Source: an uncultured virus (IMG/VR IMGVR_UViG_3300047564_005685) (Duplodnaviria > Heunggongvirae > Uroviricota > Caudoviricetes). Taken from it: 64,000 bases of DNA. The translations under genes were made by a program, and so were the position numbers. Positions 1,432-38,840 of the stretch are shown in pieces. The notes beneath the pieces are model-generated. The model had not been told where the DNA came from, ran no database searches, and worked only from the letters and a program-made list of their open reading frames with translations. The number at the start of each line of letters is the position of its first letter. Position 1 is the first letter of the stretch. The stretch lies in IMG/VR virus record IMGVR_UViG_3300047564_005685. One strand, given 5' to 3'.

Positions 1432-3630
1432 ATGAGCCAGCCCAAGACCGAACGGTTTCGTCGCATCCTAGAGGCCGCCCGCAACCGGGACGGCAGCAGC
1501 GGGACCGACACGATGATCGTGAACTCGCATCTCGCGCAGATGCGGATGTTCATGATGCGGCAAGGCATCGAGTTCTACCCAGCGCAGGACACCTACGGAT
1601 TCCGCAAGATTTTTCTGAACTCGTTGATCCGCGACAACGAGATCGACGCTCGCCTCGAGGGAATCATTGATGACTTTCTGATCGACGGCAAGGGCCTCTG
1701 GTATTTCCGGCCGGTGGGCGAGACCTACCGGCTGATGTGGTTCAACAAGGATAACTACCGCGCGTACTACGACCCGGCAGGGCAGCTGGAAGAGGTTGAG
1801 CTGATTTACAGCTTCTCGGTGCGGGACAGCTTCGGACTCGGCGCCATGATGCCGGGCGAGGGCGGCTCATTGCGGTACGTGAAGCTCAAGGTCCGCCGCG
1901 ACACGATCCTTGAGTCGATCACCAGTGAAAAGCCTTCGTTTGAGGTGAACGCCGCAACGCTGACCTACGCGCCGCAGAGCACACGGACACTGGCAAACAG
2001 TCTGGGGTTCATTCCAGCGGTCGAAGCCTTCAACATGATGCGCTCGACCGGAATGGATGCCACGGGCGAGTTCGACTGGTTGAGCGATCACATCATTGTT
2101 CATGACGACCTCGTCAAGACAATCCGCTCAAACATTACGTTTTTCGGCAACCCGACGTTCTACTCGAGTCGTCCCAAGAGCGACATTATTGAAAGCGGCG
2201 ATGCCGATGAGTTCCGGCCGACAATCAGCTCGCAGGCTGGCTTCTATGCCGCGAATCGCCCGTCCACGCGCGTCAGTGCACCGATGGGCGGCGGTGGTGG
2301 TGCAGCCGGACGCGTGCCCCGGGTGATTGCCAACCTGGAGCCGACGGACCGGTTGGGATACGTCACTCCCGATGCGGTTTCCGGAGACCAGAATCTTTAC
2401 GCGCGTCAATACCGCGAAGAGCTGCGCAATGCCCTGGGCGGGGTGGACGAGCTGGGCATCAGCACCGGCGCCACAGCGTACGAGATCAAGTCACTCTATG
2501 GGCGTGCAGCGACGACCGCAGCGCGCAAGTGCCGTGGCCTGCTGACCTATGGGCTCTGCAAACTGCTGGGGCTGATCATCTTTCACGAAGAGCGCATCTT
2601 CCGCGACTCGTTTGCTGCTGCCGTTGGACTACAGCCGCCGCCGATTCCCATCAGGGAGCAACTGGATCCCGCGCAGTTCGAGGATGCCATCCGCAAGTAC
2701 CAAGATGACCGCGCCAAGTATGACAGCGAGGTCGAGGCCCGCATCGGCGAAGCGGTGCAGAACCGTCAGATGCCCCCGGGTGTCGTTGGCCTCATCCCCG
2801 ATGGCGACCGCAAAGTCGAGTGGCGCTGGATGGGACCGGTCTTTGAGGAGTCCACGGACGATATACTGAACTCAAGCATTGTCGTACGGAACCTGCAGGA
2901 GCTCGGTGTCAATAGCATCGAAGCACTGCGGTACCTCTTCCCGGATAAAACCGACGAAGAACGCAGCGGAATGCTTAATGGCTATCCATTCCGAATGGCG
3001 CAGGCCACCCAGCAAAGCATTGGGACGTTCCTGTCGCTCATTTCCAATCTGCAGCAGATCCCGCATCCACAGGCGCCGGATCTGCCGATGTTGGCAGACC
3101 CCAGGCTTGATCTGACGCCATACATCTATCGAGCCCTTGATTTCCTTAAGCGAGAACTGACCTATGCAGGACAGTACAACGATGACAGCGGTACCGACGA
3201 TCCCGGCATCCTCGGTCCCATCGAACGCGGTCGCGCCGAATATGGCTTCCCCGCAGGTCCAGCCGGTCCAACCTTCGTACCCGACGGCGGCACCGGCGTA
3301 TTCTCCGGAAGCGCCGGTTTCGGCCCCGCAGGCCAACCCATGGCAGGCGGCGTACCAGGGGCTCCTCGCCAGTTTGAACGCGACGCAGCCCTCCCCGGCC
3401 CCGGCGTACTCCTCGCCGATGATCCAACAGGTGGCCCCTTCCCCGGTGGCTTACCAGTCGGCGCCGGCCAGCTACCAGGCGGCTCCGTCCGTTTCGGCGC
3501 CGCTGATCTCAGCATTCCCACAAACGCCGGCTTACTCCCCGGTCTCAGCACCGGCGTACAGCCAGCCGCAAACCCAGAGCCAGAGCGTCGCCGACGAGTA
3601 TCTGGCAAGCGTCAGCAACGAAAGTCTTGA
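1432..3630 (+). CDS. Putative portal protein
   Basis: 732-aa ORF directly after terL. Called from synteny and size; the low-complexity C-terminal tail overlaps the next ORF. Confidence 0.65.
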   Translation: MSQPKTERFRRILEAARNRDGSSGTDTMIVNSHLAQMRMFMMRQGIEFYPAQDTYGFRKIFLNSLIRDNEIDARLEGIIDDFLIDGKGLWYFRPVGETYRLMWFNKDNYRAYYDPAGQLEEVELIYSFSVRDSFGLGAMMPGEGGSLRYVKLKVRRDTILESITSEKPSFEVNAATLTYAPQSTRTLANSLGFIPAVEAFNMMRSTGMDATGEFDWLSDHIIVHDDLVKTIRSNITFFGNPTFYSSRPKSDIIESGDADEFRPTISSQAGFYAANRPSTRVSAPMGGGGGAAGRVPRVIANLEPTDRLGYVTPDAVSGDQNLYARQYREELRNALGGVDELGISTGATAYEIKSLYGRAATTAARKCRGLLTYGLCKLLGLIIFHEERIFRDSFAAAVGLQPPPIPIREQLDPAQFEDAIRKYQDDRAKYDSEVEARIGEAVQNRQMPPGVVGLIPDGDRKVEWRWMGPVFEESTDDILNSSIVVRNLQELGVNSIEALRYLFPDKTDEERSGMLNGYPFRMAQATQQSIGTFLSLISNLQQIPHPQAPDLPMLADPRLDLTPYIYRALDFLKRELTYAGQYNDDSGTDDPGILGPIERGRAEYGFPAGPAGPTFVPDGGTGVFSGSAGFGPAGQPMAGGVPGAPRQFERDAALPGPGVLLADDPTGGPFPGGLPVGAGQLPGGSVRFGAADLSIPTNAGLLPGLSTGVQPAANPEPERRRRVSGKRQQRKS

Positions 3631-4144
3631 GGTCCTGCAGCACTTCGGCGCCGAGGCCCCTGCACTGCTGAACCGCTATGCCTGTGTGGTTGAGGATGCC
3701 CTGCTGACCCAGGCGCAGAACACCGCTCAGGCCCTGCAGGAACTGCAGGGTGTTCAGCAGCAACTGGTCAATGCCCATGACGTCATCCGCGCCGCTGCGG
3801 AAGACAACTCGGCCTACAACCTGCTGCTGACCGACCCCGACCTGCTGGCCAACTACGTTACCGACTTCTACGGTCCCCAGGGGCCGTATCCGGTCGAGAC
3901 CCCGCAGGATCGGCTGGCTGCTGAGGTGACCGCCAGCGAGCAGTTCTATGCCCCACAGGCGCCGAGCTACCAGCGACCTCAGCTCGAGATGCCCGACCCG
4001 AATGTCCAGGCCGGCGCCCCCGGTTCGGATTTCTGGTCGGTGTTCTCGCAGGTGAGCGAGCGCAATCCCGCCATGGCCTGGCAGATCCTGTCGCAGGCCA
4101 CCCCGGACGCCCTGCGCAGCAAGGTGCTGGTTTCCGAGGTCTGA
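3164..4144 (+). CDS. Putative scaffolding/head assembly protein
   Basis: P/A/S/Q-rich N-terminus, coiled-coil-like middle, located after the portal and followed by a terminator. Confidence 0.5.
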   Translation: MQDSTTMTAVPTIPASSVPSNAVAPNMASPQVQPVQPSYPTAAPAYSPEAPVSAPQANPWQAAYQGLLASLNATQPSPAPAYSSPMIQQVAPSPVAYQSAPASYQAAPSVSAPLISAFPQTPAYSPVSAPAYSQPQTQSQSVADEYLASVSNESLEVLQHFGAEAPALLNRYACVVEDALLTQAQNTAQALQELQGVQQQLVNAHDVIRAAAEDNSAYNLLLTDPDLLANYVTDFYGPQGPYPVETPQDRLAAEVTASEQFYAPQAPSYQRPQLEMPDPNVQAGAPGSDFWSVFSQVSERNPAMAWQILSQATPDALRSKVLVSEV

Positions 4145-4160
4145 TCCACTGACCATCACA

Positions 4161-4184
4161 GCCCCGCCCAGTGCGGGGCTTTTC
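4161..4184 (+). terminator. Intrinsic terminator
   Basis: GCCCCGC-ccagt-GCGGGGC followed by TTTT, just after the stop at 4144. Confidence 0.65.
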
Positions 4185-4186
4185 CC

Positions 4187-4507
4187 ATGATTGCTCCTCC
4201 CAATACCGCCGTCCCCGTACGGCGCAACCCTGCCGCCGAGCTGGTCTTCTCCGCGCCCCCGGGTGCGCCTGATCGAATGCAACCGCAGGTTGCCCTGCAG
4301 CAGCAGGCCATTCGTGGTGATGTACAAGCCGAGATCAGCAGCACCCAGAGGCAAGCGCTCCTGGATGGCTATGTGAGCGAACTACAGAAAGCCAGCGGAA
4401 CAGAGGCCAAGCAGGCGTTGGCCAACAAAGTCAACGAATTCATGTCCACTCAGCGGATTGCTACTCCAGCTGATGCGATCATGATGATGACCGGCATGCG
4501 CGGTTAG
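4187..4507 (+). CDS. Hypothetical protein
   Basis: 106-aa ORF in the co-oriented gene string. Confidence 0.55.
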   Translation: MIAPPNTAVPVRRNPAAELVFSAPPGAPDRMQPQVALQQQAIRGDVQAEISSTQRQALLDGYVSELQKASGTEAKQALANKVNEFMSTQRIATPADAIMMMTGMRG

Positions 4508-4536
4508 CTAACCTTTTAGGGACTGCGGGCATGTGA

Positions 4537-4851
4537 ATGCGGCTTGCTGGTAGCCCCGAGGTCTACGAGGTCCTCTCCAGGCGATTCGTCGATCGCGGCG
4601 TGCCTGGGGAGGCCTCTCGGCATCTTGCCGCTGAGGTCATGTCTGACGGCGATCAGGTCGACACCCGGTTGGACACATTCTTCCGGATGTACGAACTGCT
4701 GCAGTCCAAGGGATACAGCGAACCAGCAGCGCAGCATCTAGCGGTCGAAATGATGGAGGGTCGCGAACCGATGGCCCGGATGACGAAACGCTTTGCGGCA
4801 ATCAATGGACAGCAATTCCCTGACCCTGGCAGCGGCAGTCCAGTTAATTGA
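4537..4851 (+). CDS. Hypothetical protein (N-terminal RLAG motif)
   Basis: 104-aa ORF with an internal repeat (ASRHLAAEVM / AAQHLAVEMM). Confidence 0.6.
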   Translation: MRLAGSPEVYEVLSRRFVDRGVPGEASRHLAAEVMSDGDQVDTRLDTFFRMYELLQSKGYSEPAAQHLAVEMMEGREPMARMTKRFAAINGQQFPDPGSGSPVN

Positions 4852-5986
4852 GAGCTTTGAGGGCGTCGAGGAAGAGGCGTATCTCGATCCAATCGGCATC
4901 CCGACAATTTGCGCTGGAATCACCGTCTATCCAGGCGGTCAGCCAGTCCGCATGGGGGATGTCTGTGATAGCAGGATCTGCAAGGCGCACCTCATGGAGC
5001 TCCTGAGGGAGACTTATGTGCCGGCATTGGAATCGATCCCGGGCTGGAGCCGCCTTGGGTACCGCCGCCAGGCAGTGTTGCTGAGCTTCGCGTGGAATCT
5101 CGGGCCAAGGTTCTATGGCTCAGAGGGATTCGAGACGATCACCAGTGTCCTCAGGGAAGGTGCCACACGACCCGAAGCGTACGCGCAGATGCCTCAAGCG
5201 CTTAGCCTGTATGTCAACGCAGGTGGTGGCCCGCTTCCGGGGTTGATTGATCGCCGCAGGCGAGAAGGCGAAATCTGGGCCAAGGAGGACAATGGAATGA
5301 CTGTATTCACAGCCACGCAAGGCACGGTGCTAAAGAAAGCGCCGATTGATTCGCAGTACCTGTCTGAAGCCGGCAAGCGGGCCTACGGCAAAGGCAACTC
5401 GATTGTCGTCACGCAGGTCGACGAGATCCCCGCAGACAGTCATGCCTGGTTCACGCTGAAGGATTCCGGAGAACGCTGGGCCGCATTCCTGCCTCACTGG
5501 AAAGCAGAGTCCGCAAAACCTGCACCGGAAGCACCGCAAACAGCACAAGTCAAGCGCGTCGATTGGAGCAATTTTGCTTGTCCAGTGGGGAAGTACATCA
5601 CAGTGGGCGAGGTTCTGCAGTACGACTTGCGCAGAAAGCCGATCCCCGGCAGCGCCATCGAGCAGGCAATCCTTGCGCTCTGCAAGGAGTTCGACAGCAT
5701 ACGCGAGGCCTGGGATGGCCCGATCGGTGTCACCAGTGGCTATCGGCCGGAGCCAATCAATTCGCAAGTGGGCGGCGTGCCAAACAGCTACCACACGCGG
5801 GGCATGGCGCTGGACATCTATCCAGTCGGCGCCTCACTGCAGAAATTCTATGCCTGGCTGATCAAGCGCTGGAGCGGAGGATTTGGTGACGGGCGTAACA
5901 GGGGCTTCATTCATATCGACACCAGAAACGGCGGGAGATTCAGTAGCACACCTGACGCGAAGCCCGCTGCTGCCTGGCTGTACTGA
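4805..5986 (+). CDS. Endolysin: GH24 lysozyme plus C-terminal peptidase M15A-like domain
   Basis: E-x8-D-x5-T lysozyme triad (FEGVEEEAYLDPIGIPTIC). C-terminal TSGYR..N..VGG..NSYH..GMALD..FIHID, typical of M15A. Start taken at ATG 4805. Confidence 0.85.
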   Translation: MDSNSLTLAAAVQLIESFEGVEEEAYLDPIGIPTICAGITVYPGGQPVRMGDVCDSRICKAHLMELLRETYVPALESIPGWSRLGYRRQAVLLSFAWNLGPRFYGSEGFETITSVLREGATRPEAYAQMPQALSLYVNAGGGPLPGLIDRRRREGEIWAKEDNGMTVFTATQGTVLKKAPIDSQYLSEAGKRAYGKGNSIVVTQVDEIPADSHAWFTLKDSGERWAAFLPHWKAESAKPAPEAPQTAQVKRVDWSNFACPVGKYITVGEVLQYDLRRKPIPGSAIEQAILALCKEFDSIREAWDGPIGVTSGYRPEPINSQVGGVPNSYHTRGMALDIYPVGASLQKFYAWLIKRWSGGFGDGRNRGFIHIDTRNGGRFSSTPDAKPAAAWLY

Positions 5987-8891: not shown

Positions 8892-9647
8892 ATGACTGTC
8901 ATTGACAGGGTCAATCGCTGGGGCGCCTCGGGGAAAAGAGTGCTAGTTGGCCCCGGAGAGCTCTCGGGCCCCGCTAGTGACGCGATCAAGGGACGCTTTG
9001 CAAGTATTACGCGGATTACCGGTGCTGTCGACTTTTACGAGATCACCGATGGATCTGGCGCCAATGAAGGCACGTACACGATTTCGGTAAAGCCATACAC
9101 AAAAGACGGCTTCCGCGCCAGTCTTGGAGGTGTGGGCCGAGTAGCGCTCGTTCGTCAAGCGGATGGCGTCAATACCCCTACCGCGACCGCGACGCTGTTG
9201 AGCCTAAAGCGTCCACGCGACAAGCAGACCGCTGTTACCTTGGGGCCGGCATCCATCGCGACCACCGACCGGCTGTTTCTGATTATCGAGAGACAGGACG
9301 TATCAACCATCAAGTATCAGGTTGAACTCACTCGAGTTCTGGATGCAATCACAATCAGCACGCAGCCATCCGCTAGCAGCGTGACTGCGCCAGCCTCGGC
9401 GAGTTTCACCGTAGGTGCAACGACAAATGACGGCGGCACTCTGTCGTATCAGTGGCAGCTCAGCACCAACGGTGGCACGAGCTACTCCAACATCACCAAT
9501 GGTGGTGTCTATAGCGGGGCGACAACCACGACGCTATCGATTTCCGATTCGACCGGACTCAATGGAAATCTTTATCGCGCCCGCGTGACCAGCACCGGCG
9601 GTTCTGTTGCCGTCAATTCCGATGGAGCGCTGCTGACCGTCGGCTGA
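8892..9647 (+). CDS. Virion protein with C-terminal Ig-like domain
   Basis: ITISTQP...ASFTV...LSYQWQ...TLSI...YRARV Ig-like pattern; N-terminus paralogous to ORF 6030. Confidence 0.75.
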   Translation: MTVIDRVNRWGASGKRVLVGPGELSGPASDAIKGRFASITRITGAVDFYEITDGSGANEGTYTISVKPYTKDGFRASLGGVGRVALVRQADGVNTPTATATLLSLKRPRDKQTAVTLGPASIATTDRLFLIIERQDVSTIKYQVELTRVLDAITISTQPSASSVTAPASASFTVGATTNDGGTLSYQWQLSTNGGTSYSNITNGGVYSGATTTTLSISDSTGLNGNLYRARVTSTGGSVAVNSDGALLTVG

Positions 9648-9714
9648 TCGGCAAGTATTGCGCGTCAGGCGGAATCAGCCAATACCTGTGTTGTATTGGC
9701 TGATGTCCCAATAC

Positions 9715-9846
9715 TTAGCGGCCCTGTCCGCGTGATGGCTTGCGACCGTGATTAGGCTTGGAGCCGCGCCCCTGTCCCTGCCTGGTCTTCTTGCAGATAG
9801 GATCCCGGTGGACGCATCTGGTCGAATTAGTCTTCGGCTTGGCCAT
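9715..9846 (-). CDS. Small basic protein, 43 aa (not in the ORF track)
   Basis: MAKPKTNSTRCVHRDPICKKTRQGQGRGSKPNHGRKPSRGQGR. The KKTRQG..RGQGR pattern resembles small cyanophage proteins; coupled to the upstream stop. Confidence 0.55.
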   Translation of the reverse strand: MAKPKTNSTRCVHRDPICKKTRQGQGRGSKPNHGRKPSRGQGR

Positions 9847-10268
9847 CAGATGACCCTGATCGCCATAGCGCCGACATTGAACTGAACAGTGTCGCCCTGC
9901 TGGACACTGACAGGCGTTGTCAGTTCACCGCTAGCCAGGAAGTTACCTCCAGTGACGGCATCCCAGACGCCAAAATGCGTCAACGTCACCGTCGAGCCAT
10001 TGGCTGCGTTCGTCGTGATCTGAACCACGTATGAATTCGTGATTTCACGGCCGCCGCCGGATGCGTTACCAACGGCGCTGAACGCGCTTGACGCCACCGT
10101 GGTGCGATTGGCCGTACCGGTCACGGAAGTCGTGGCATCGTCTACCGTGCCATTCACGCCTGGGTTGCCAGAGTGAATCGAGATGTGGACATTGCTGAGG
10201 GCCGCCGGGAAGGACACGCCCTTCACCCAAGTCAGGATCCTATCCGCCAGGTATTGAGAAAATGCCAT
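9846..10268 (-). CDS. Putative virion structural protein
   Basis: TLTHFGVWDAVTGGNFL..G.L...V..GD motif common in small tail-associated proteins. Confidence 0.65.
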   Translation of the reverse strand: MAFSQYLADRILTWVKGVSFPAALSNVHISIHSGNPGVNGTVDDATTSVTGTANRTTVASSAFSAVGNASGGGREITNSYVVQITTNAANGSTVTLTHFGVWDAVTGGNFLASGELTTPVSVQQGDTVQFNVGAMAIRVI

Positions 10269-11242: not shown

Positions 11243-11824
11243 CTAGCGAACTCCACTGCGCAGGCCTCGACGCATCGAGACATGAACGTGGGGGTAGACG
11301 CGCTTGGCAAAACGTTCGGACTCCTCGGGGCTCAGCTCGATAGCGAAGCCGCCCTTCGTGGTGATCTCTTCCGTAGCCCCAAAGCCATGACTGTCCAGGA
11401 GCAATGCGGCAGACGTGGTCAGCGGCTTTGAGCGGAAATTAGCAAAGGAGATCCGCGTCCCATCCGAACGCCCCCGATCGCACCAGAGAGTGCGGAGCCC
11501 GTGCTCGCCTGCAATGTCCATGGCGATACGGGTGACCTGTTTTTCATCGCGGGGATAAAGCAAGTCGTAAATATGCTGCATCTCAGGACAATGCACCAAC
11601 AAGCGGTGGTCGTCATAAAAGCCGCGTGTGGGGATCGTCAGGATTTCGCTCTCCAGCTGACCCGGGTATGACGCACGCAGTTGCCGCTGGATATGGCGCA
11701 AGTAGGTTAACTCGAGCTCAGAGCGCTGCAGCATCATCCAGGGGCGTCGCTTCCTGCCCAGGTGCTGAATCCTGCCGCTCCACATACAGTAGCTGAGTGC
11801 GGTGGCCACGAATTGAACTGACAT
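11243..11824 (-). CDS. Degenerate LAGLIDADG-like protein
   Basis: IYDLLYPRDEKQVT...GLRTLWCDRG resembles the LAGLIDADG_2 linker and second helix; the first helix lacks the acidic DG (ALSYCMWSG). Confidence 0.5.
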   Translation of the reverse strand: MSVQFVATALSYCMWSGRIQHLGRKRRPWMMLQRSELELTYLRHIQRQLRASYPGQLESEILTIPTRGFYDDHRLLVHCPEMQHIYDLLYPRDEKQVTRIAMDIAGEHGLRTLWCDRGRSDGTRISFANFRSKPLTTSAALLLDSHGFGATEEITTKGGFAIELSPEESERFAKRVYPHVHVSMRRGLRSGVR

Positions 11825-12425
11825 CCCACTGGTTGCTGTTGAACAGGTGTTGGCGACTTCTCGGTGCGTAAGAGCTCAGGGCATCCTTGAGCTTGCGAGA
11901 TTGCTCGGCGTCAAACCACAGCCGGGGCCTGACGCGCTCAAGATCGACCTGGGAAACGGCCCCCGTGAGCATCTCCAGCCACTGCTGCACCAGGAGCGCT
12001 TCCTGCGTGCTGAGCCCAACGCGCGCCAGTTCGGTCGTGCCGCCGGCTTGCGGCCGAGCGCCTTCTGCCCAGAGCCACGCGGCTGCTTGCGCCCCGAGCA
12101 TGTCGATCACCGTGCTGGTGATCCGGCGCTCGCCGCGAGGGTACAGCAAGTTGTAGATCGGGAACAGCTTGCTGGTGGAGACGCGAAATCGCAGGACGGG
12201 AGTGGTCTTGCCATTCGAGCGCGGCGTCGTGTTGTAGGGAACAATCTGGGCCTTGGTGGGCAGAAAATGGCGGAAGTCGGCGACCTTATCCTCCAGGAAT
12301 GCGGACTCCGACGGACCAGCGGTCAGGGTCAACTGCACATAACCCCCGCCAGGAGCGCGATATGGGGCAAGGCTGCCGTCCGCCAGCAGCAAACCCAGCA
12401 GGCCCCGGACGTCAGCAGCGTCCAA
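11718..12425 (-). CDS. Free-standing LAGLIDADG-family protein
   Basis: LLGLLLADGSL first helix, IYNLLYPRGERRIT linker, AAAWLWAEG second helix; AGGGAG RBS before the TTG start. Confidence 0.75.
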   Translation of the reverse strand: MDAADVRGLLGLLLADGSLAPYRAPGGGYVQLTLTAGPSESAFLEDKVADFRHFLPTKAQIVPYNTTPRSNGKTTPVLRFRVSTSKLFPIYNLLYPRGERRITSTVIDMLGAQAAAWLWAEGARPQAGGTTELARVGLSTQEALLVQQWLEMLTGAVSQVDLERVRPRLWFDAEQSRKLKDALSSYAPRSRQHLFNSNQWDVSSIRGHRTQLLYVERQDSAPGQEATPLDDAAAL

Positions 12426-12515
12426 AGTTTCTCCCTATAAAACACTACTATAGTAAGAGACAGGAGGCGCTTAGCGCGCTTTCTCGTACCTTGACAATTT
12501 GGAGCGTTTCATCCC

Positions 12516-13142
12516 ATGTGGATTGATAACGATTTTCCGAAGCTGCTTGGTGCTGAGCTTTATCGGCCACATCCTTCTTACATCGTTGAGATGGCTGTGG
12601 AGCCGGTTGTTGTGCATGATTTTGCTAAGCAACCGGGACAGACTGTGCAACTTGATCGATACCGCTTCTGGGGTGCTCCTGGCACCAAAGATAGCCGTGA
12701 ACGCACAGCTGATCAAACGCTCGGTACCGCATCTTCGCGTAGCATCGTGAAGGATAAGGTTCTGGTTTCTCTCAAAGAATATACCGGACCCGCAGATCCT
12801 ACCGATGTTTCTGCACCTTCTACGTTCAAGATCGCAAGGGAGACCTTGCTTACCGCCCAGCGCATGTTGCTGGATACTGGTAATCTGAATGTCTTCCATC
12901 AATCGATCGGAAGCCTTACGCTTTTGGACGATTATCGCCGCTGGCGCGATCGCGTCTTCTGCGATGAATTGTTCAAAGCTGAAGGCAATGGAGCTGCAGA
13001 TAGCACCAAAGGTGGCTACTACTATCCGCTGAAGAAAGCAAAGGCGTCTTCTGCGCCTTTCCTGACCTACGCGGCTGGTGAGTCGGCCAAATTCGATGTC
13101 AAGACCGACCTCCTCGAGGTGGTCAAAGACATGCGCAAGCGT
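12516..13142 (+). CDS. Major capsid protein, exon 1 (N4-gp56-like by recall)
   Basis: 209 codons ending ...KDMRKR at the U of a group I 5' splice site; HDFAKQPGQTVQLDRYRF capsid-like motif. Confidence 0.75.
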
Positions 13143-13494
13143 AAAGTAGTTGCGCTCGCCTAGGGCAATCTAGGCGCAAACATCCGGTGAATTGCTGGAA
13201 CCCCTTCTTCGCGTTCATCTCCCTACAACGTGGCCGGCGACGGCGAGCGTGAATGGTTGAAAAGAGGTGAATAGGGCGATCAGCAGCCAAGCTGGTCAGG
13301 AATGACTAGAAGGTTCAACGACTAGGCCGTACCCTCCAGGCCGGAGGATGAGGGCCAATAGCGCCGGAGAGCTAACACCAATGCTCTACGAAGATGGATT
13401 GGGTCAATAGAGGCCGCGGGACGCCCCATGCATTGGTGCTCTAGCTCAAGATATAGTCTACGCCCTGGGGATGAGAAACCCAGGGAGCTACGTG
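13143..13494 (+). mobile_element. Group I intron 1 (352 nt, no ORF)
   Basis: P GAATTGCTGGAA 13189, Q GATCAGCAGCC 13278, R GTTCAACGACTAG 13313, S AAGATATAGTCT 13448. P1 AGCGU/GCGCU with U.G wobble; terminal G at 13494; removal restores the frame. Confidence 0.9.
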
Positions 13495-13716
13495 AACGTC
13501 CCCACCTTCGCTGATGGGTACTACCGCTGCATTGCGGATCCCACCGCAATGATGCACCTGCGTCAGAACGACTCCTTCCGGGAGATCGCTCGTTACGCAG
13601 GTAATGGGATGGTCAACCCCATGCAACCGGAACTGGCCCCCAATGCCAGCTTCTTCCGTGGCATGGGCCCTGCTTACGGTCAGGCCGGCTTTGTTGCTGG
13701 TCAGCCCGTGATGCCT
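13495..13716 (+). CDS. Major capsid protein, exon 2
   Basis: 74 codons NVPTFADGYYRC...GQPVMP, phase 0 at both ends. Confidence 0.8.
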
Positions 13717-14822
13717 GAAACCATCGGGCCTGCATGATGCGAGTCATGCAGCAAACGGGGTGAATTGCGGGAATGCCTCCCTACTACGGCAAATCCGCAG
13801 CCAAGCCAGGCCACAACCTGGAAGGTTCAACGACTAGGTCCCGAGAGGAAACTCGGTAATGGACCCACGAGTGCCCCGCTACTTAACCATTTCAATCCAA
13901 GTATCTGCTTCCAGCTTCTTCCGCGTGATGCATGGGGCCCCAGCTCCGTAGGTCCACTGCAGGATCTTGCGAGGCTTGCCGCCAAAGGTCATCGTGAAGA
14001 AGGTTTTGCCAGACGGCAAAACGCGACTGTGTATAACTGGCTCGACGGAAAAGCCTTCCGCCACCCAGCTCGACACAGTAAAGATAATCGCTTGAGAACA
14101 ACTGCAGAGGTATAAAGACTTCTTTTTGGCGCTAATATGGCCATCGCCGTCAAGAAGACCTCTTAAGCAATGCCCCCGCAGTTCACGAGGAATCGTCGAC
14201 GGCAGAAAATGCTGTTCAGTGTTCAAGGTGATCCCTTGGGACACGAGTGACTCAGTTAGCAAGCGACTATGAATCAGGAGGCGCCCCGATGGGCGTTTAC
14301 CTTTTCTCGTCACCCTCTCGCAGGATCCCCTGTAATTAAGCAGTTTTGCCAATCCATTCAGGACATCGGCATCGGGAAACTGCAGCTCAATTGAAGTAAA
14401 CTTCGCATTGGGCTTCAAGGATGTGTGACCATCGGCAGCAAGCAGGCCCAGGTAATAGGCCTTGTCCGGGCTGTCGATGTTCTGGAAGCAGTCAACCCTT
14501 AGATCTCTGTGCCAGGGATGAGCTGTGCCCTGTCCTGGGTGGAGCAACTGGCCGCCCTGCAACGAGCGCCTACAACCGGTGCTCTTCGTGAATGACTGGA
14601 TTCCGTGGCGTTTACGAAGCACAAAGAAACTAGACGTGGCAATACCAAGCAGCTTGGCTGCCTGGGTATCCGACCATTCGGATGCCAGTTTTCTGACGGT
14701 TTCTTCTGAGATCTCGAGTTTAACTCCCTGCATAGCAACGGTTAAGTAGATGAGATAGTCTGACCTCACGGGATGGCAAACCGCGAGAACTGGGGGATAA
14801 ACAACCCCAGGATAACATAGTG
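13717..14822 (+). mobile_element. Group I intron 2 (1106 nt) with antisense homing endonuclease
   Basis: P GAATTGCGGGAA 13762, Q AATCCGCAGCC 13792, R GTTCAACGACTAG 13825, S ATGAGATAGTCT 14750. P1 GCCU/GGGC; P8 CTACTTAACC/GGTTAAGTAG; terminal G at 14822. Confidence 0.9.
13879..14733 (-). CDS. Intron-encoded double-motif LAGLIDADG homing endonuclease
   Basis: KAYYLGLLAADG and CLRGLLDGDG motifs, N-terminal HTH-like segment. ATG 14733 chosen as start; the frame extends to 14769. Confidence 0.88.
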   Translation of the reverse strand: MQGVKLEISEETVRKLASEWSDTQAAKLLGIATSSFFVLRKRHGIQSFTKSTGCRRSLQGGQLLHPGQGTAHPWHRDLRVDCFQNIDSPDKAYYLGLLAADGHTSLKPNAKFTSIELQFPDADVLNGLAKLLNYRGSCERVTRKGKRPSGRLLIHSRLLTESLVSQGITLNTEQHFLPSTIPRELRGHCLRGLLDGDGHISAKKKSLYLCSCSQAIIFTVSSWVAEGFSVEPVIHSRVLPSGKTFFTMTFGGKPRKILQWTYGAGAPCITRKKLEADTWIEMVK

Positions 14823-15116
14823 AGCGGCTTTCTCTTCGAAGGCGTGCGCTGGTTCGAAAGCACCAACATGCCCGAGAAGAGCCTGCAGGTGACCATCACC
14901 GATGCGTCGATCACCAGTGCGGTGACGGTTGCATCCCCGATGCTGTTCTTCGGCCCTCAGGCCGTGGGCGTGGGCATCGGCGGCAACAATGCGCAGATCC
15001 TGCTGAACAATAACGACGATTTCAGTCGTTTCATCATCATGATCTGGTCGCTCTTCGCAGGTTTCGAAATCCTGAACAAGGACTTCGTCACCGTGGCTTA
15101 CTCCTTCGTCTACTGA
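14823..15116 (+). CDS. Major capsid protein, exon 3
   Basis: SGFLFEGVRWFES...FFGPQAVG...DDFSRF...W, typical capsid C-terminal pattern; spliced product about 380 aa. Confidence 0.8.
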   Translation, partial: SGFLFEGVRWFESTNMPEKSLQVTITDASITSAVTVASPMLFFGPQAVGVGIGGNNAQILLNNNDDFSRFIIMIWSLFAGFEILNKDFVTVAYSFVY

Positions 15117-15131
15117 TAGGAGGTAAAACCC

Positions 15132-15782
15132 ATGGCGAAGAAAATCTATCCCGGTAACTACGTCAACCGCCTGAGCTCCTATCAGGGCCAGCCGGTGGTT
15201 GCAGTCCCGGGTCGCGTTTACTACCACGTCACCGGTTACGCGCTGGTGCCCGACGACAATGTCGGTGCGACTTCGTTCGACGTGATCATCCCGTCCCCCG
15301 ATCGCCGGGCGGACGACAAGCCCCGGGCCAGTATCACTGGTCTGGTGGTCCCCGCTGGTGCCAGCATTTACCACCTCGGCCTGCGTGTGCCCGACATGCG
15401 CAAGGACCGTGGCGTCGGTACCGCGTTCTCGGGTCTCGTCGGCACCGATACCAACCGGCTCAAGCTGGCTGACGCCATCGGTAACGACGACACCATCACG
15501 ACCTCGGCCGCTTCGACGACCTCGAGCGAGTTGGCGGTGGCCAGTACGACCGTAGCCCCGAAAGCCACTGTCAAGAGCCTGGTCACGCCTGCCATCCTGG
15601 CTGGAAACGAGACCCTCAAGGTCTACGTGACCAATAGCTCTGGCACTTCGGCTGGCTCGGCCATTTACTCCACCCAGAAAGGCGGCACGCCGCTGATCGT
15701 TGAGGTGGCGTATTTCCTGTCCGACGCCGTGGCTGACCTCGGTGACGTGACGATTCCGTTCATCACCGAAACGAGCGGCTGA
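15132..15782 (+). CDS. Putative capsid decoration/minor capsid protein
   Basis: Strong AGGAGGT RBS, directly after the capsid gene and before a terminator. Confidence 0.55.
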   Translation: MAKKIYPGNYVNRLSSYQGQPVVAVPGRVYYHVTGYALVPDDNVGATSFDVIIPSPDRRADDKPRASITGLVVPAGASIYHLGLRVPDMRKDRGVGTAFSGLVGTDTNRLKLADAIGNDDTITTSAASTTSSELAVASTTVAPKATVKSLVTPAILAGNETLKVYVTNSSGTSAGSAIYSTQKGGTPLIVEVAYFLSDAVADLGDVTIPFITETSG

Positions 15783-15800
15783 CGCGCAGTCGTTAAACTT

Positions 15801-15829
15801 GGGGGCACCGGCATGGGGCCCCCTTTTTT
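15801..15829 (+). terminator. Intrinsic terminator after the capsid operon
   Basis: GGGGGC...GCCCCC followed by TTTTTT. Confidence 0.65.
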
Positions 15830-16261
15830 ATGGCGCTGTATCAGAACAAGCGGAATGGCCAGATCGTGGAGTTCATCAACTACCACGACACTGATTGGGC
15901 CATGGTCAAGAACGCGACCGGCTCCATCCAGTACGTCGCCCTGGTGGACCTGATCTCCTATGAGCCCGGAAAGGGTCGGACTGGCGAGACCCCTGCGCCG
16001 CAGCTGCCAAATGGCAGGGCCGACGAGGACACGATTCCTGAGTCGGTGATCCCTGTCGACACCCGGCTGAACATCAACGCCGCCAGCGCAGAAGCAATTG
16101 CCAAGACGGTCAAGGGCATCGGTTACGCCACTGCCAAAAAAATCGTGGAGCTTCGGATGAGCCTTTCCGGCGAGCGTTTCGCGAACCTCGACCAACTCCG
16201 TCGTATCGGCCGCGTGGACTGGGATCAGGTCATTGCTGACGACGTGATCTATGTCGGCTGA
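15830..16261 (+). CDS. Helix-hairpin-helix (ComEA-like) DNA-binding protein
   Basis: LNINAASAEAI..VKGIG..TAKKIVE.R...F..LDQL. Confidence 0.8.
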   Translation: MALYQNKRNGQIVEFINYHDTDWAMVKNATGSIQYVALVDLISYEPGKGRTGETPAPQLPNGRADEDTIPESVIPVDTRLNINAASAEAIAKTVKGIGYATAKKIVELRMSLSGERFANLDQLRRIGRVDWDQVIADDVIYVG

Positions 16262-16293
16262 ACGCTTAGAATCAAAAAAGGTCGCTGCTGCCG

Positions 16294-16779
16294 GTGGAGC
16301 TCGACAATTACAACAAGAGTCGCTGCCGCTGGCATCTTGGCGTGAACACAGGCGCCAATATCCCGGCGGGTGATGTCGCCCGTTTGGAAGAGGCGATGGC
16401 GCGGATCCCGGATTCCTATTTCTACGACCGCGTCACTGAGCACCTGGATCGCTGTGATAAGGCGTATGCCGTCTCACAGGTCTTCCGGGTCGCGGATCAA
16501 CCGCAGCCCAGCCGGATTGAGCGGATCACCGGTGATACCGACCGCGCGATCTTTCAGTCCGATCCGCTTAAGGCGGCCAAGGACTACCGAGAGGTCTACC
16601 TGCGGGAGGTGGATCTACTCGCCGAAACGCTCTACGTCGCGAACTACCGCCGAGAGGAAGTTCGTCGTTACGCATACGAGCGTGCCGGCGCTGAGTTCAT
16701 CATGGCCATCCCGGGGCCAGCAGACACAGCCGTGGGAACCCGCGTCCTGCAGGCGACAGGTTCCATGAATTGGAGGTAA
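16294..16779 (+). CDS. Hypothetical protein, possible head-tail connector
   Basis: 161-aa helical ORF; called from position only. Confidence 0.45.
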   Translation: MELDNYNKSRCRWHLGVNTGANIPAGDVARLEEAMARIPDSYFYDRVTEHLDRCDKAYAVSQVFRVADQPQPSRIERITGDTDRAIFQSDPLKAAKDYREVYLREVDLLAETLYVANYRREEVRRYAYERAGAEFIMAIPGPADTAVGTRVLQATGSMNWR

Positions 16780-29607: not shown

Positions 29608-30738
29608 ATGCCTGCTCCCAACTCCTGGATCAAGCGTCAGAACACAGCACTGCGCCTGCGGGGCTGTGCGGTCTCACTGGACCTAGCTGGATCGAGGATC
29701 CGCCTGCGCGCGACCCTGCCGCCCAAACCATCGGACCCGATCGGCGCATCCGCGAGGCAGCAACGCATCAGCACGGGGCTGCTGTATCCGGAACAGGGAG
29801 AAGAAGCGATCGAGCTGGCGGAGGTCCTCAGCAAGGCCCTGGAACGGCATCGAATCGGCGCCGAAGCATTCGACTGGGCCCCCTGGCTGCGGCTCTCTGC
29901 CGCCAAGGAGCCATCGGTCTCGACAGTGGCGGAGATCAGCGGACCGGCGGCAATCGAGCAGGCGCGGGAGTGGTGGTTTCGCCACGGAAAACACCGGTAC
30001 GCCGCTGAGTCGACCTGGCAGAGCAGCTACGAGCGTCCGCTGCGTCCTCTGCGCGGTATCGCTCGCCTCGAGATGAGCCACCTGCATGCCCTCGTCGAGA
30101 CCACAAAGGCCAAGACCCGTTACCGGCGCGTCCTGACCACAGCGTGCGCCACCGTGGCGAGGGCGCTGCATTGGCCGGAGGATGCCATCGATGAGCTGCT
30201 CGCCAAGGGCAAGGGGTACGCGATCTCCAGCGTCAAGGCCCGTGAAATCCCACCGGACGGCGTGATCGAGGCCGGGATCGACCGGCTGCCGTCCCATTGG
30301 CAGTGGGCCGTCGCCATGGTGGCGACCTACGGCTGCCGCCCCCATGAAGCCCTGAAATACGCCACGGTCCTGCCATCGGGACTGGCAAGTGTTCAGAACG
30401 GCAAGACCGGCGCGCGGCAGTCCCTGGCCCTGCCGGCGCAGTGGATCGAGAGATGGGACCTGCATCAGCAGCGCAGGCCAAACATTGACTTGAATCGCAA
30501 CAATCAGCAGGTCGGCGGTCTGATGAGCCAGATGCTGCTTCGTCGGAAGGCCGGATTCCGCGCTTACGACCTGCGGCACGCCTGGGCGGTGAGGGCGATC
30601 CACGACCCGAGGATCTCGCCGTCCCTGGCCGCAAAATCCATGGGGCACAGCCTGACGATGCACTCCATGGTGTATCAGCGCTGGTTTGATGGCAGCGAGC
30701 TGGAGGGCGTGCAGGCGCTGCTCAGTGCAACGTCCTGA
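29608..30738 (+). CDS. int: Tyrosine recombinase/integrase
   Basis: YGCRPHE (R), GKTG (K), YDLRHAWAVR (H-x-x-R variant), MGHS and terminal Y catalytic residues. Confidence 0.9.
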   Translation: MPAPNSWIKRQNTALRLRGCAVSLDLAGSRIRLRATLPPKPSDPIGASARQQRISTGLLYPEQGEEAIELAEVLSKALERHRIGAEAFDWAPWLRLSAAKEPSVSTVAEISGPAAIEQAREWWFRHGKHRYAAESTWQSSYERPLRPLRGIARLEMSHLHALVETTKAKTRYRRVLTTACATVARALHWPEDAIDELLAKGKGYAISSVKAREIPPDGVIEAGIDRLPSHWQWAVAMVATYGCRPHEALKYATVLPSGLASVQNGKTGARQSLALPAQWIERWDLHQQRRPNIDLNRNNQQVGGLMSQMLLRRKAGFRAYDLRHAWAVRAIHDPRISPSLAAKSMGHSLTMHSMVYQRWFDGSELEGVQALLSATS

Positions 30739-31228: not shown

Positions 31229-31816
31229 ATGACGCCAGAACACTGGAATGATTATGTGTTCAGCCTCATCGATTTATCCCCTCGAGCCGCTCGAAGGAGG
31301 TTTCAGCAGTCCATCAAAAGCGCTTGGGGCTCATGCGCGTATTGCGGTCGTTCGCGCGATCAGAGGGGAGAACTCATTCCCCTGACGCTCGATCACGTCA
31401 AACCGCGCCACTATGGCGGCAGTTCTTTGCGCTCGAATCTTGTGCCGGCGTGCCGAGAGTGCAACGAGAACAAAGGCAGCGCCAGGGATTGGAGAACTTG
31501 GTACTCTCAGCAGCAGTTCTACTGCGCCCTTCGCGCAGCCAGAATCGAAGCCTGGCTGCAGCCCGCTTGGGGCCGGTGGGGTGCTCATGAATCAGACTGC
31601 TGCGAATCCCATGGACAACGAGCTCTCGGAGGAGCAACAGTACATGTTGCGGAAAGTCCGCCTAGAGGCGGAATCTATGACTCGGAAAGAATTGATCGAG
31701 GCGTTGTGCGATTCCTGGGAGGCGCGGTATCAGCAGCGGCAGATCTTTGCGTCCATGGGGCGCCAATTCGGGCTGACCTTCACGGTGAGGGAGGAATATC
31801 CATGGCAGCGGCCTGA
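31229..31816 (+). CDS. HNH endonuclease
   Basis: CAYCG...TLDHVKP...GG....NLVPACRECNENK; the C-terminal ~75 aa overlaps the next gene. Confidence 0.85.
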   Translation: MTPEHWNDYVFSLIDLSPRAARRRFQQSIKSAWGSCAYCGRSRDQRGELIPLTLDHVKPRHYGGSSLRSNLVPACRECNENKGSARDWRTWYSQQQFYCALRAARIEAWLQPAWGRWGAHESDCCESHGQRALGGATVHVAESPPRGGIYDSERIDRGVVRFLGGAVSAAADLCVHGAPIRADLHGEGGISMAAA

Positions 31817-38144: not shown

Positions 38145-38840
38145 CTATGTTAAAAGGTCCAACGACCGCTCTGATTCCTCAGCCGGGACGTCGTCGTCCT
38201 CGTCTTCTTCATCCCCTAGCAGGCGCTGCTCAATCCAGGCTTCGTTCTGCTGAAGCAGGGTTTCGAATCGCTTGGGCGTCATCGAGGCGGAAGCTTCAAG
38301 GAAATCCTTGGTCTGACGCAGGAGCTTCATGGAGTTGAACTCCAGATCAATCAGCTGCAGTTTCCGCTGGTGGTAGAAGTGCGGAACGCCCTTGACGCGC
38401 AGGTGGAGTGGGTTGCAGCAATTGACGTTCTTGCAGATGGGGTGAATCGGGAGCCTGCCGACATCCCCCCATGTGTACCAAACGGCAACGCGCTGGGCGG
38501 CGTGGGCATTGCCGCGCGTCCAGTGACGAGCGATATGGAAGCGCCCAGAATTCCATCTGGGGCACTTGGTCCCCTGCCATTCCCAGCAGTCATCAGAGCC
38601 GCAGATATCGACAAGACTCCAAAACTCGAGAAACTTGCGGCGATGCTGCCTGCTGATTTTGTGGATATCCAGCGAAAGGCGGCCTTCCGTTAACGCGGAA
38701 ATGCAGCGAACACAAGCATATGAATCGGAGTAACGAGGAATGCGGCCATCCTTGCTGCCGATGGCGTGTTCGTGAAAAAAGCACATCGGACCGCCTTCGA
38801 TCTCGTGGTGGAGATTGGGCGGAATCGGCCACTTAGCCAC
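38145..38840 (-). CDS. HNH/His-Me finger endonuclease-like protein
   Basis: DDCWEWQG...A.RVA...H.IC.N..CCNPLHL. Confidence 0.7.
   Translation of the reverse strand: MAKWPIPPNLHHEIEGGPMCFFHEHAIGSKDGRIPRYSDSYACVRCISALTEGRLSLDIHKISRQHRRKFLEFWSLVDICGSDDCWEWQGTKCPRWNSGRFHIARHWTRGNAHAAQRVAVWYTWGDVGRLPIHPICKNVNCCNPLHLRVKGVPHFYHQRKLQLIDLEFNSMKLLRQTKDFLEASASMTPKRFETLLQQNEAWIEQRLLGDEEDEDDDVPAEESERSLDLLT

Follow-up and report, generated by a model that had tools for sequence, protein, structure and literature searches.

Why would a phage carry two interruptions in the gene for its major capsid protein, and do these serve the phage or themselves? The question is raised by positions 12516 to 15116 of a 64,000-nucleotide (nt) stretch of DNA from an uncultured virus (IMG/VR record IMGVR_UViG_3300047564_005685; the whole stretch is referred to as the window), where three coding segments on the plus strand are separated by two inserts. 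A preliminary description of the locus had called the inserts group I introns and proposed that they form a timing or metabolic checkpoint on capsid synthesis. Our analysis, which builds on the RNA anatomy of the inserts, the restoration of the reading frame, their presence/absence polymorphism in relatives and their preference for a single gene, leads to another answer: the inserts are most likely two working, self-splicing group I introns that persist as optional selfish passengers of the capsid gene in an S-EIVl-like, probably Synechococcus-infecting phage.

Removal of 13143-13494 and 13717-14822 joins exon 1 (12516..13142; 627 nt, 209 codons), exon 2 (13495..13716; 222 nt, 74 codons) and exon 3 (14823..15116; 294 nt, 97 codons and the stop) into an uninterrupted frame of 209+74+97 = 380 amino acids with zero internal stops, and the boundaries given in the preliminary description proved exact. 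Read-through of the unspliced RNA encounters a stop as the seventh codon past each junction, as had been described; from these stops, two splicing events would be needed to produce the capsid in this genome, and gene callers would split the gene, as anticipated. When three intronless relatives were used as queries in an unconstrained spliced alignment, the inserts came out as exactly 352 and 1106 nt long. Their placement can slide by one shared base, which the U.G pair of helix P1 and the terminal G resolve by fixing the register. Searches with exon 1 recovered 81 loci; junction 1 is crossed uninterrupted in 80 of them at 69-96% identity, and the 81st (L002) is a twin identical to the window. 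Junction 2 is crossed uninterrupted in 78 of the 81, and two loci end short of it. The check suggested earlier, a contiguous alignment to intronless capsids, was therefore borne out by collinearity with 80 relatives, and the window's exons are stop-free and 95-96% identical to intact relatives.

The identity of the protein was established by family profile and fold comparison. Exon 1 is 74.6% identical to S-EIVl, exon 2 yields a weak match to PHROG 1357 and exon 3 matches the same family with an E-value of 5e-7. Profile and HK97 fold tests were run on the capsid protein of L003, an intronless relative 96% identical to the window's, which matches PHROG 1357 (major head protein) with an E-value of 1.6e-20. 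An alignment-based AlphaFold model of the capsid has a mean predicted local distance difference test (pLDDT) score of 81.6, and its best Foldseek matches in the PDB are the phage capsids 8i4l, 9vye and 8h89 (E-values of 2e-12 to 5e-11, template modelling (TM) scores of ~0.5); no match was obtained for the capsid in Pfam or in a PDB sequence search. Based on the profile and the modelled fold, we assign the gene as encoding an HK97-fold major capsid protein.

Both inserts reach or exceed the gathering score of 50 for the Rfam group I intron model RF00028, which supports their original classification. Intron 1 (13143..13494, plus strand; 352 nt, no endonuclease) is matched at 13131-13485 with 70 bits and an E-value of 1e-15, and intron 2 (13717..14822, plus strand; 1106 nt) at 13707-14787 with 50.7 bits and an E-value of 6e-10; no further group I matches to this model occur in the 64 kb in either gathering or E-value mode. 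Each intron is preceded by U and ends in G, and the 5' splice site pair and terminal G noted in the preliminary description could be located in both. In intron 1, P1 (13135-44/13150-59) contains the pair U13142.G13152 and is followed by P3 (13183-89/13362-68), P4 (13193-98/13280-85) with a long P5 extension, P7 (13320-24/13454-58), P8 (13369-74/13442-47) with an extended loop, P9.0 and the terminal G at 13494. In intron 2, P1 (13713-18/13724-29) contains U13716.G13726, P3 lies at 13756-62/13872-78, P7 at 13832-36/14756-60 and P8 at 13879-88/14740-49, and P2, P4, P6a, P7.1, P9.1, P9.2 and the terminal G at 14822 are also present. Helices P3, P4, P7, P8 and P9 are thus found in both introns, the guanosine-binding P7 helix is intact, and a paired insert follows P7 in both; extra helices P7.1/P7.2 between P7 and P3 mark subgroup IA (IA2), to which the introns may belong. 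In five introns that share the site of intron 2 but carry no endonuclease, with the structure drawn on one of the five, 98.2% of cells are paired and 29 of 67 pairs show compensatory change, a value reached in 0 of 500 shuffles, while slid controls were 31-45% paired. Across nine introns the guide sequence pairs better with its own 3' exon (mean -4.7 kcal/mol) than with those of others (-3.5 kcal/mol; permutation p 0.01), and P10 of intron 2 (-4.5 kcal/mol) covaries. Judged on these sequence features, both inserts in the major capsid gene are group I introns. Closest to the core of intron 1 are the introns that relatives have at capsid site 30.2 (72-79% identity, tree support 100), and one of these contains a member of the antisense endonuclease family described below. 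The P8 loop of intron 1 (13375-13441, minus strand) contains a short stretch that opens with ATG and is positioned as the start of an antisense endonuclease would be; its interpretation as the remnant of a deleted endonuclease could not be confirmed, and it was not counted.

Loop L8 of intron 2 contains a predicted homing endonuclease gene on the opposite strand (13879..14733, minus strand), an open reading frame (ORF) that the preliminary description had overlooked. The protein is 284 amino acids long from the ATG at 14733, and the frame is open from a GTG at 14769, which would give 296 amino acids. It comprises an N-terminal helix-turn-helix (HTH)-like part and two LAGLIDADG motifs with acidic residues, and it matches PF14528 (E-value 1e-7, above the cut-off) and PHROG 4645 (E-value 8e-25). 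The aspartates of the LAGLIDADG motifs are invariant across seven aligned proteins. The endonuclease is 73% and 51% identical to relatives encoded at the same site, 23-28% identical to those at other sites and 29% identical to related known proteins, the intron-encoded endonucleases of the Staphylococcus phages Romulus and Remus. Against the two same-site relatives the proportion of synonymous differences (pS, 0.82 and 0.95) lies far above that of nonsynonymous differences (pN, 0.18 and 0.36), and therefore the gene is, or was, expressed; by these comparisons it appears to be intact and subject to purifying selection. It points the same way as the window's DNA-metabolism genes. By analogy with site-specific relatives, the enzyme would be expected to cut the intronless allele at its own insertion site.

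The introns are optional even between near-identical viruses. Three contigs from independent DNA studies (X5, X7 and X9) are ~99% identical to the window. X5 is without intron 1, carries intron 2 complete with endonuclease (15 differences in 1539 nt) and bears an additional insert of ~1.2 kb near codon 139; X7 retains intron 1 (13 differences in 1855 nt) and has an endonuclease-free intron 2 in which 8 nt stand in place of 861 nt of the loop; X9 also lacks intron 1, and its intron 2 is the endonuclease-free form seen in X7. Intron-plus and intron-minus alleles co-occur in the same sequencing runs, and the loci L130 and L005 encode identical capsid proteins, the former with two introns and the latter with none. 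A sample of 72 full-length genes was assembled with exon 3 (80 loci less seven partial genes and the window's twin), in which 63 genes are intron-free and 2, 2, 2 and 3 genes carry 1, 2, 3 and 4 introns, respectively. The number of introns per gene is clumped (variance/mean 2.9), as a Poisson distribution would give 51.6/17.2/2.9/0.3/0.03 genes with 0/1/2/3/4 introns. L143 was counted as zero in this sample; its apparent intron was rejected as a frameshift at 5660-5690 in an otherwise intact capsid gene, either a sequencing error or real. On a capsid tree built with a quick rather than a careful method, intron presence requires 9 changes, compared with 16.8 when labels are shuffled. Two pattern scans of IMG/VR at codon 209, the site of intron 1, returned only the window's twin, and the site was otherwise seen only in run X7. 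The introns therefore look like optional, mobile elements.

Across the clade, the capsid gene is an intron hotspot. Pattern and endonuclease searches combined with spliced alignments yielded 75 introns in 28 contigs, called at 23 sites, with at most five introns per gene; some site calls may be 1-3 nt off (6.0/6.1, 35.2/36.1) and several contigs are near-copies, so that ~20 sites is the safe figure. No long ORF is present in 47 of the 75 introns. All 15 members of the window's endonuclease family, found at five sites, lie antisense in L8, a second LAGLIDADG family is in sense orientation in 9 of 9 cases at five other sites (directly after P7 where checked), and an HNH gene is antisense in three near-identical introns at site 4. 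The latter is exemplified by L116 3167-3964 (also L093 and L096), where the intron is 798 nt long, follows capsid codon 4 and carries the antisense HNH-HTH endonuclease gene in its 5' part. Alignment of the endonuclease family led to 79 loci; members in capsid introns are antisense, and among distant homologues in other phages the intron-like matches are mostly on the same strand, with 44 of the 79 loci showing no match of either kind. G015, which is among these loci, is a distant complete 81-kb phage whose terminase is 30% identical over part of its length; it has three group I introns (L330 974-3517), all in its PHROG 1357 capsid gene, and one of these holds an antisense LAGLIDADG gene of the window's endonuclease family. 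A tree of intron cores joins related cores at different capsid sites, 37/48 and 232/283 (support 99), although its deep nodes are unresolved and some rows were poorly extracted. Two capsid matches in contigs binned into metagenome-assembled genomes (MAGs), L400 4001-5394 and L404 4001-4870, probably contain further introns, as these matches are longer than the intact gene or begin later than it does. Of 120 loci picked up in metagenome contigs by a loose pattern scan, none encodes this capsid, so the scan has little bearing on that collection.

Group I introns were found in this one gene only. RF00028 was run over 20 whole virus records (~1.1 Mb), and all 42 matches lie inside the capsid gene by their coordinates. 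These come from 13 records (five complete) that were selected for having capsid introns, so that capsid matches are present by selection and the informative part is the absence of introns elsewhere, within the limits of the search's first-look filter and of one general model; the seven other records searched gave zero matches. In G019 the most 5' match lies just upstream of codon 4 and the start codon was not found; G016 was checked separately. A profile built from these introns and run at full sensitivity over four complete genomes and the window placed 13 of 13 matches in the capsid gene. Scans with RF00028 detected no group I intron in the window's thymidylate synthase, helicase, dCMP deaminase or terminase gene. 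In each of four genome comparisons, the capsid gene ranks first in conservation among 33 window genes (84-96%).

These observations can be joined in a mechanism whose steps of splicing, cutting, co-conversion and antisense transcription are taken from established group I biology, as set out in the available text of PMC3984707 and PMC2988022. Each intron would excise itself from the late capsid mRNA in a two-step, guanosine-initiated reaction. During co-infection the antisense LAGLIDADG protein would cut intronless capsid alleles near codon 283, and repair of the cut allele would copy intron 2 across (homing), such that the mobility of the intron would be explained by the antisense gene. The endonuclease-free intron 1, 222 nt upstream, may ride along by co-conversion or may be a leftover that has lost a former endonuclease, and one endonuclease-bearing intron in the gene could enable its neighbors to hitch-hike. 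Most simply, the antisense gene might be transcribed from an internal minus-strand promoter. The accumulation of introns in the capsid gene across the clade, at ~20 sites, would follow from its being the most conserved of the essential genes, and its conservation would allow target sites and repair homology to persist between divergent co-infecting phages.

Several results weigh against this account. The terminase gene is 80-82% conserved yet lacks a group I intron, so conservation alone is insufficient, and conservation at the insertion sites exceeds that of the remaining gene only slightly (p 0.02, or p = 0.05 once close sites are merged). The clumping of introns is partly kinship, as the intron label clusters on the capsid tree and several contigs are near-copies. 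No sigma-70-like promoter for the antisense gene was found within 12300-16400, and P10 of intron 1 is weak (~3 bp, duplex energy 0.0 kcal/mol). A contig from the RNA run X18 is without both introns; it was not counted as evidence of splicing because its exon 1 identity of 92% makes it indistinguishable from an intronless relative. Finally, the host assignment relies on a single isolate.

The checkpoint proposed in the preliminary description, in which the phage would keep the introns in order to time capsid production through splicing that is slow or depends on GTP, light or translation, is in our judgment very unlikely. Splicing of T4 introns reportedly varies with growth state, and the capsid cannot be made from unspliced RNA. 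Splicing of a cyanophage psbA intron is also condition-dependent, responding to high light, in the available text of PMC8557907. However, a regulatory intron should occupy a fixed position and be retained across relatives, and the proposal fails because these introns are not retained in this manner: most sampled genes lack them, identical proteins are encoded with and without them, ~99%-identical relatives differ in each intron, positions are scattered over ~20 sites, and the site of intron 1 was found only in this virus, in two IMG/VR pattern scans, and in run X7. It is even less credible, indeed extremely improbable, that the locus is a dead gene or an assembly artefact; the RNA contig of run X18 is ambiguous as to splicing, but each intron recurs in independent studies, the exons are stop-free and nearly identical to those of intact relatives, and the intron structure covaries.

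Two further ideas could add to selfish homing rather than replace it. The endonuclease might act as a weapon that benefits its carrier by cutting a rival's capsid gene in co-infection, which we hold to be unlikely, albeit the less unlikely of the two. The target is both essential and the most conserved gene, and intron-plus and intron-minus alleles share sequencing runs; an example is also said to exist in a jumbo phage. The idea has been put forward for other viruses (PMC6247863, in the text available). On the other side, the endonuclease is often lost while the intron is kept (the 47 of 75 introns without a long ORF, X7 and X9), which fits a selfish cycle of gain and loss. Somewhat more doubtful is local spread, in which excised intron RNA, most abundant at the capsid transcript, re-inserts nearby and conservation is not the main cause. 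It would account for related cores at different sites (intron 1 and site 30.2; 37/48 and 232/283) and for a well-conserved terminase without introns, but no reverse transcriptase was detected among 39 window proteins scanned, and the core tree is limited at depth as described above. Optional selfish passengers thus remain the reading we favor.

The nearest isolate, S-EIVl, differs from the window in that its capsid gene is intron-free. An antisense HNH gene is said to occur in the phage W31/PhiI intron (I-TslI). The rarity of capsid-gene introns implied by the preliminary description was overstated, as the available text of PMC7886860 already describes capsid genes split by several group I introns in crAss-like phages of the Delta and Zeta groups, with five capsid fragments in one genome and endonuclease domains in some introns. 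These phages belong to another group with other hosts, and their introns, up to 14 per genome, are distributed among many core genes (PolB, primase, RNA polymerase), whereas all matches in the window's clade fall in the capsid gene; antisense endonucleases are unmentioned in that text. Classical phage introns, as covered by the text available (T4 td/nrdB/nrdD; Bastillevirinae, PMC11878797; Jug phages, PMC12880540; Pf-WMP3, PMC3428280), share a possibly IA-like core with extra helices after P7, an endonuclease in a loop, a patchy distribution and several introns per gene. They differ in residing in DNA-metabolism or terminase genes rather than a structural gene, with surveys of other phage groups reporting DNA polymerase, terminase and reductase genes (PMC11878797, PMC12880540), and in encoding sense HNH or GIY-YIG enzymes rather than an antisense LAGLIDADG protein. 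The capsid gene of Faustovirus E12 also contains many introns, five of them group I and two with homing endonucleases, but this is a eukaryotic giant virus with GIY-YIG endonucleases and additional non-group-I introns (PMC6247863, available text). An antisense endonuclease gene in a peripheral loop, including P8, is likewise described for nuclear ribosomal DNA (rDNA) introns such as Dir.S956-2, which reside in protist nuclear rDNA and not in a phage protein gene (PMC3679873, available text). The available text of PMC3428280, PMC10286775, PMC10580990, PMC6669764, PMC10914365 and PMC8557907 contains nothing on capsid introns. In a literature made up mostly of open papers without their supplements, neither capsid introns in S-EIVl-like phages nor an antisense LAGLIDADG gene within a phage intron turned up; further capsid introns may be listed in the supplements of PMC7886860, PMC12880540 and PMC12350094.

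Among the genes of the window, a segment of a phage genome, are those for terminase, tail, endolysin, thymidylate synthase, dCMP deaminase, helicase and exonuclease. Its closest named phage is Synechococcus phage S-EIVl (KJ410740), the only close isolate among 50,697 phage records (capsid 68-75%, terminase 55% and next structural protein 46% identical), and a cyanobacterial host, probably Synechococcus, is likely. The virus is from a lake, and the runs holding at least half of the window (8 of 22 rows, four of the eight possibly being its source) are freshwater metagenomes. Twelve loci in prokaryote genomes, located in MAGs of unrelated taxa, are probably mis-binned phage contigs and offer no host evidence. 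In the S-EIVl record (L001, KJ410740.1) the intact intronless capsid ORF at 9001-10131 is unannotated, GenBank giving an opposite-strand hypothetical protein and a C-terminal fragment, and the terminase large subunit (2222-4762) contains an intein (PF14890, E-value 1e-11) that the window's terminase lacks. Divergent from the window's capsid gene are two tandem LAGLIDADG-like ORFs (11243-12425, minus strand; PF03161 match for 11718-12425) that are weakly similar to the sense intron endonucleases and possibly domesticated DNA-binding proteins. The pair is kept in 41-42 of 81 loci irrespective of introns; nearly all of these loci are intronless, and collaborative homing of intron 1 by the pair was rejected. 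A weak integrase-like ORF (29608-30738) and free-standing HNH-like ORFs (31229-31816 and 38145-38840) lie between the structural and replication modules.

Capsid-gene introns per se are already known, and the interest of the locus lies more in the pattern across its clade than in a checkpoint. The preference that phage group I introns show for genes of nucleotide synthesis and DNA metabolism is termed mysterious in a 2025 survey (PMC12350094, available text), and this clade is a natural counter-case in which such metabolism genes are present and intron-free and every intron found is in the capsid gene. That all introns found lie in the most conserved gene compared, and the metabolism genes are free of them, favors target conservation, homing and co-conversion over a nucleotide-sensing function. 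This idea is open to test, since the intron-plus and intron-minus alleles available are near-identical and the related isolate S-EIVl is in culture. The clade also supplies several predicted site-specific LAGLIDADG nucleases in an unusual antisense layout, and for capsid-based surveys and gene callers the marker is fragmented in ~1 in 8 clade genomes (9 of 72 sampled). A bolder and, we think, unlikely possibility is that phages of this capsid family, G015 among them, harbor a guild of group I introns specialized on the major capsid gene, with antisense orientation selected because it uncouples the nuclease from the strongest late transcript, its own transcript perhaps pairing with the capsid pre-mRNA and damping splicing. 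If true, the view that function explains the preference of phage introns for nucleotide-metabolism genes would be overturned.

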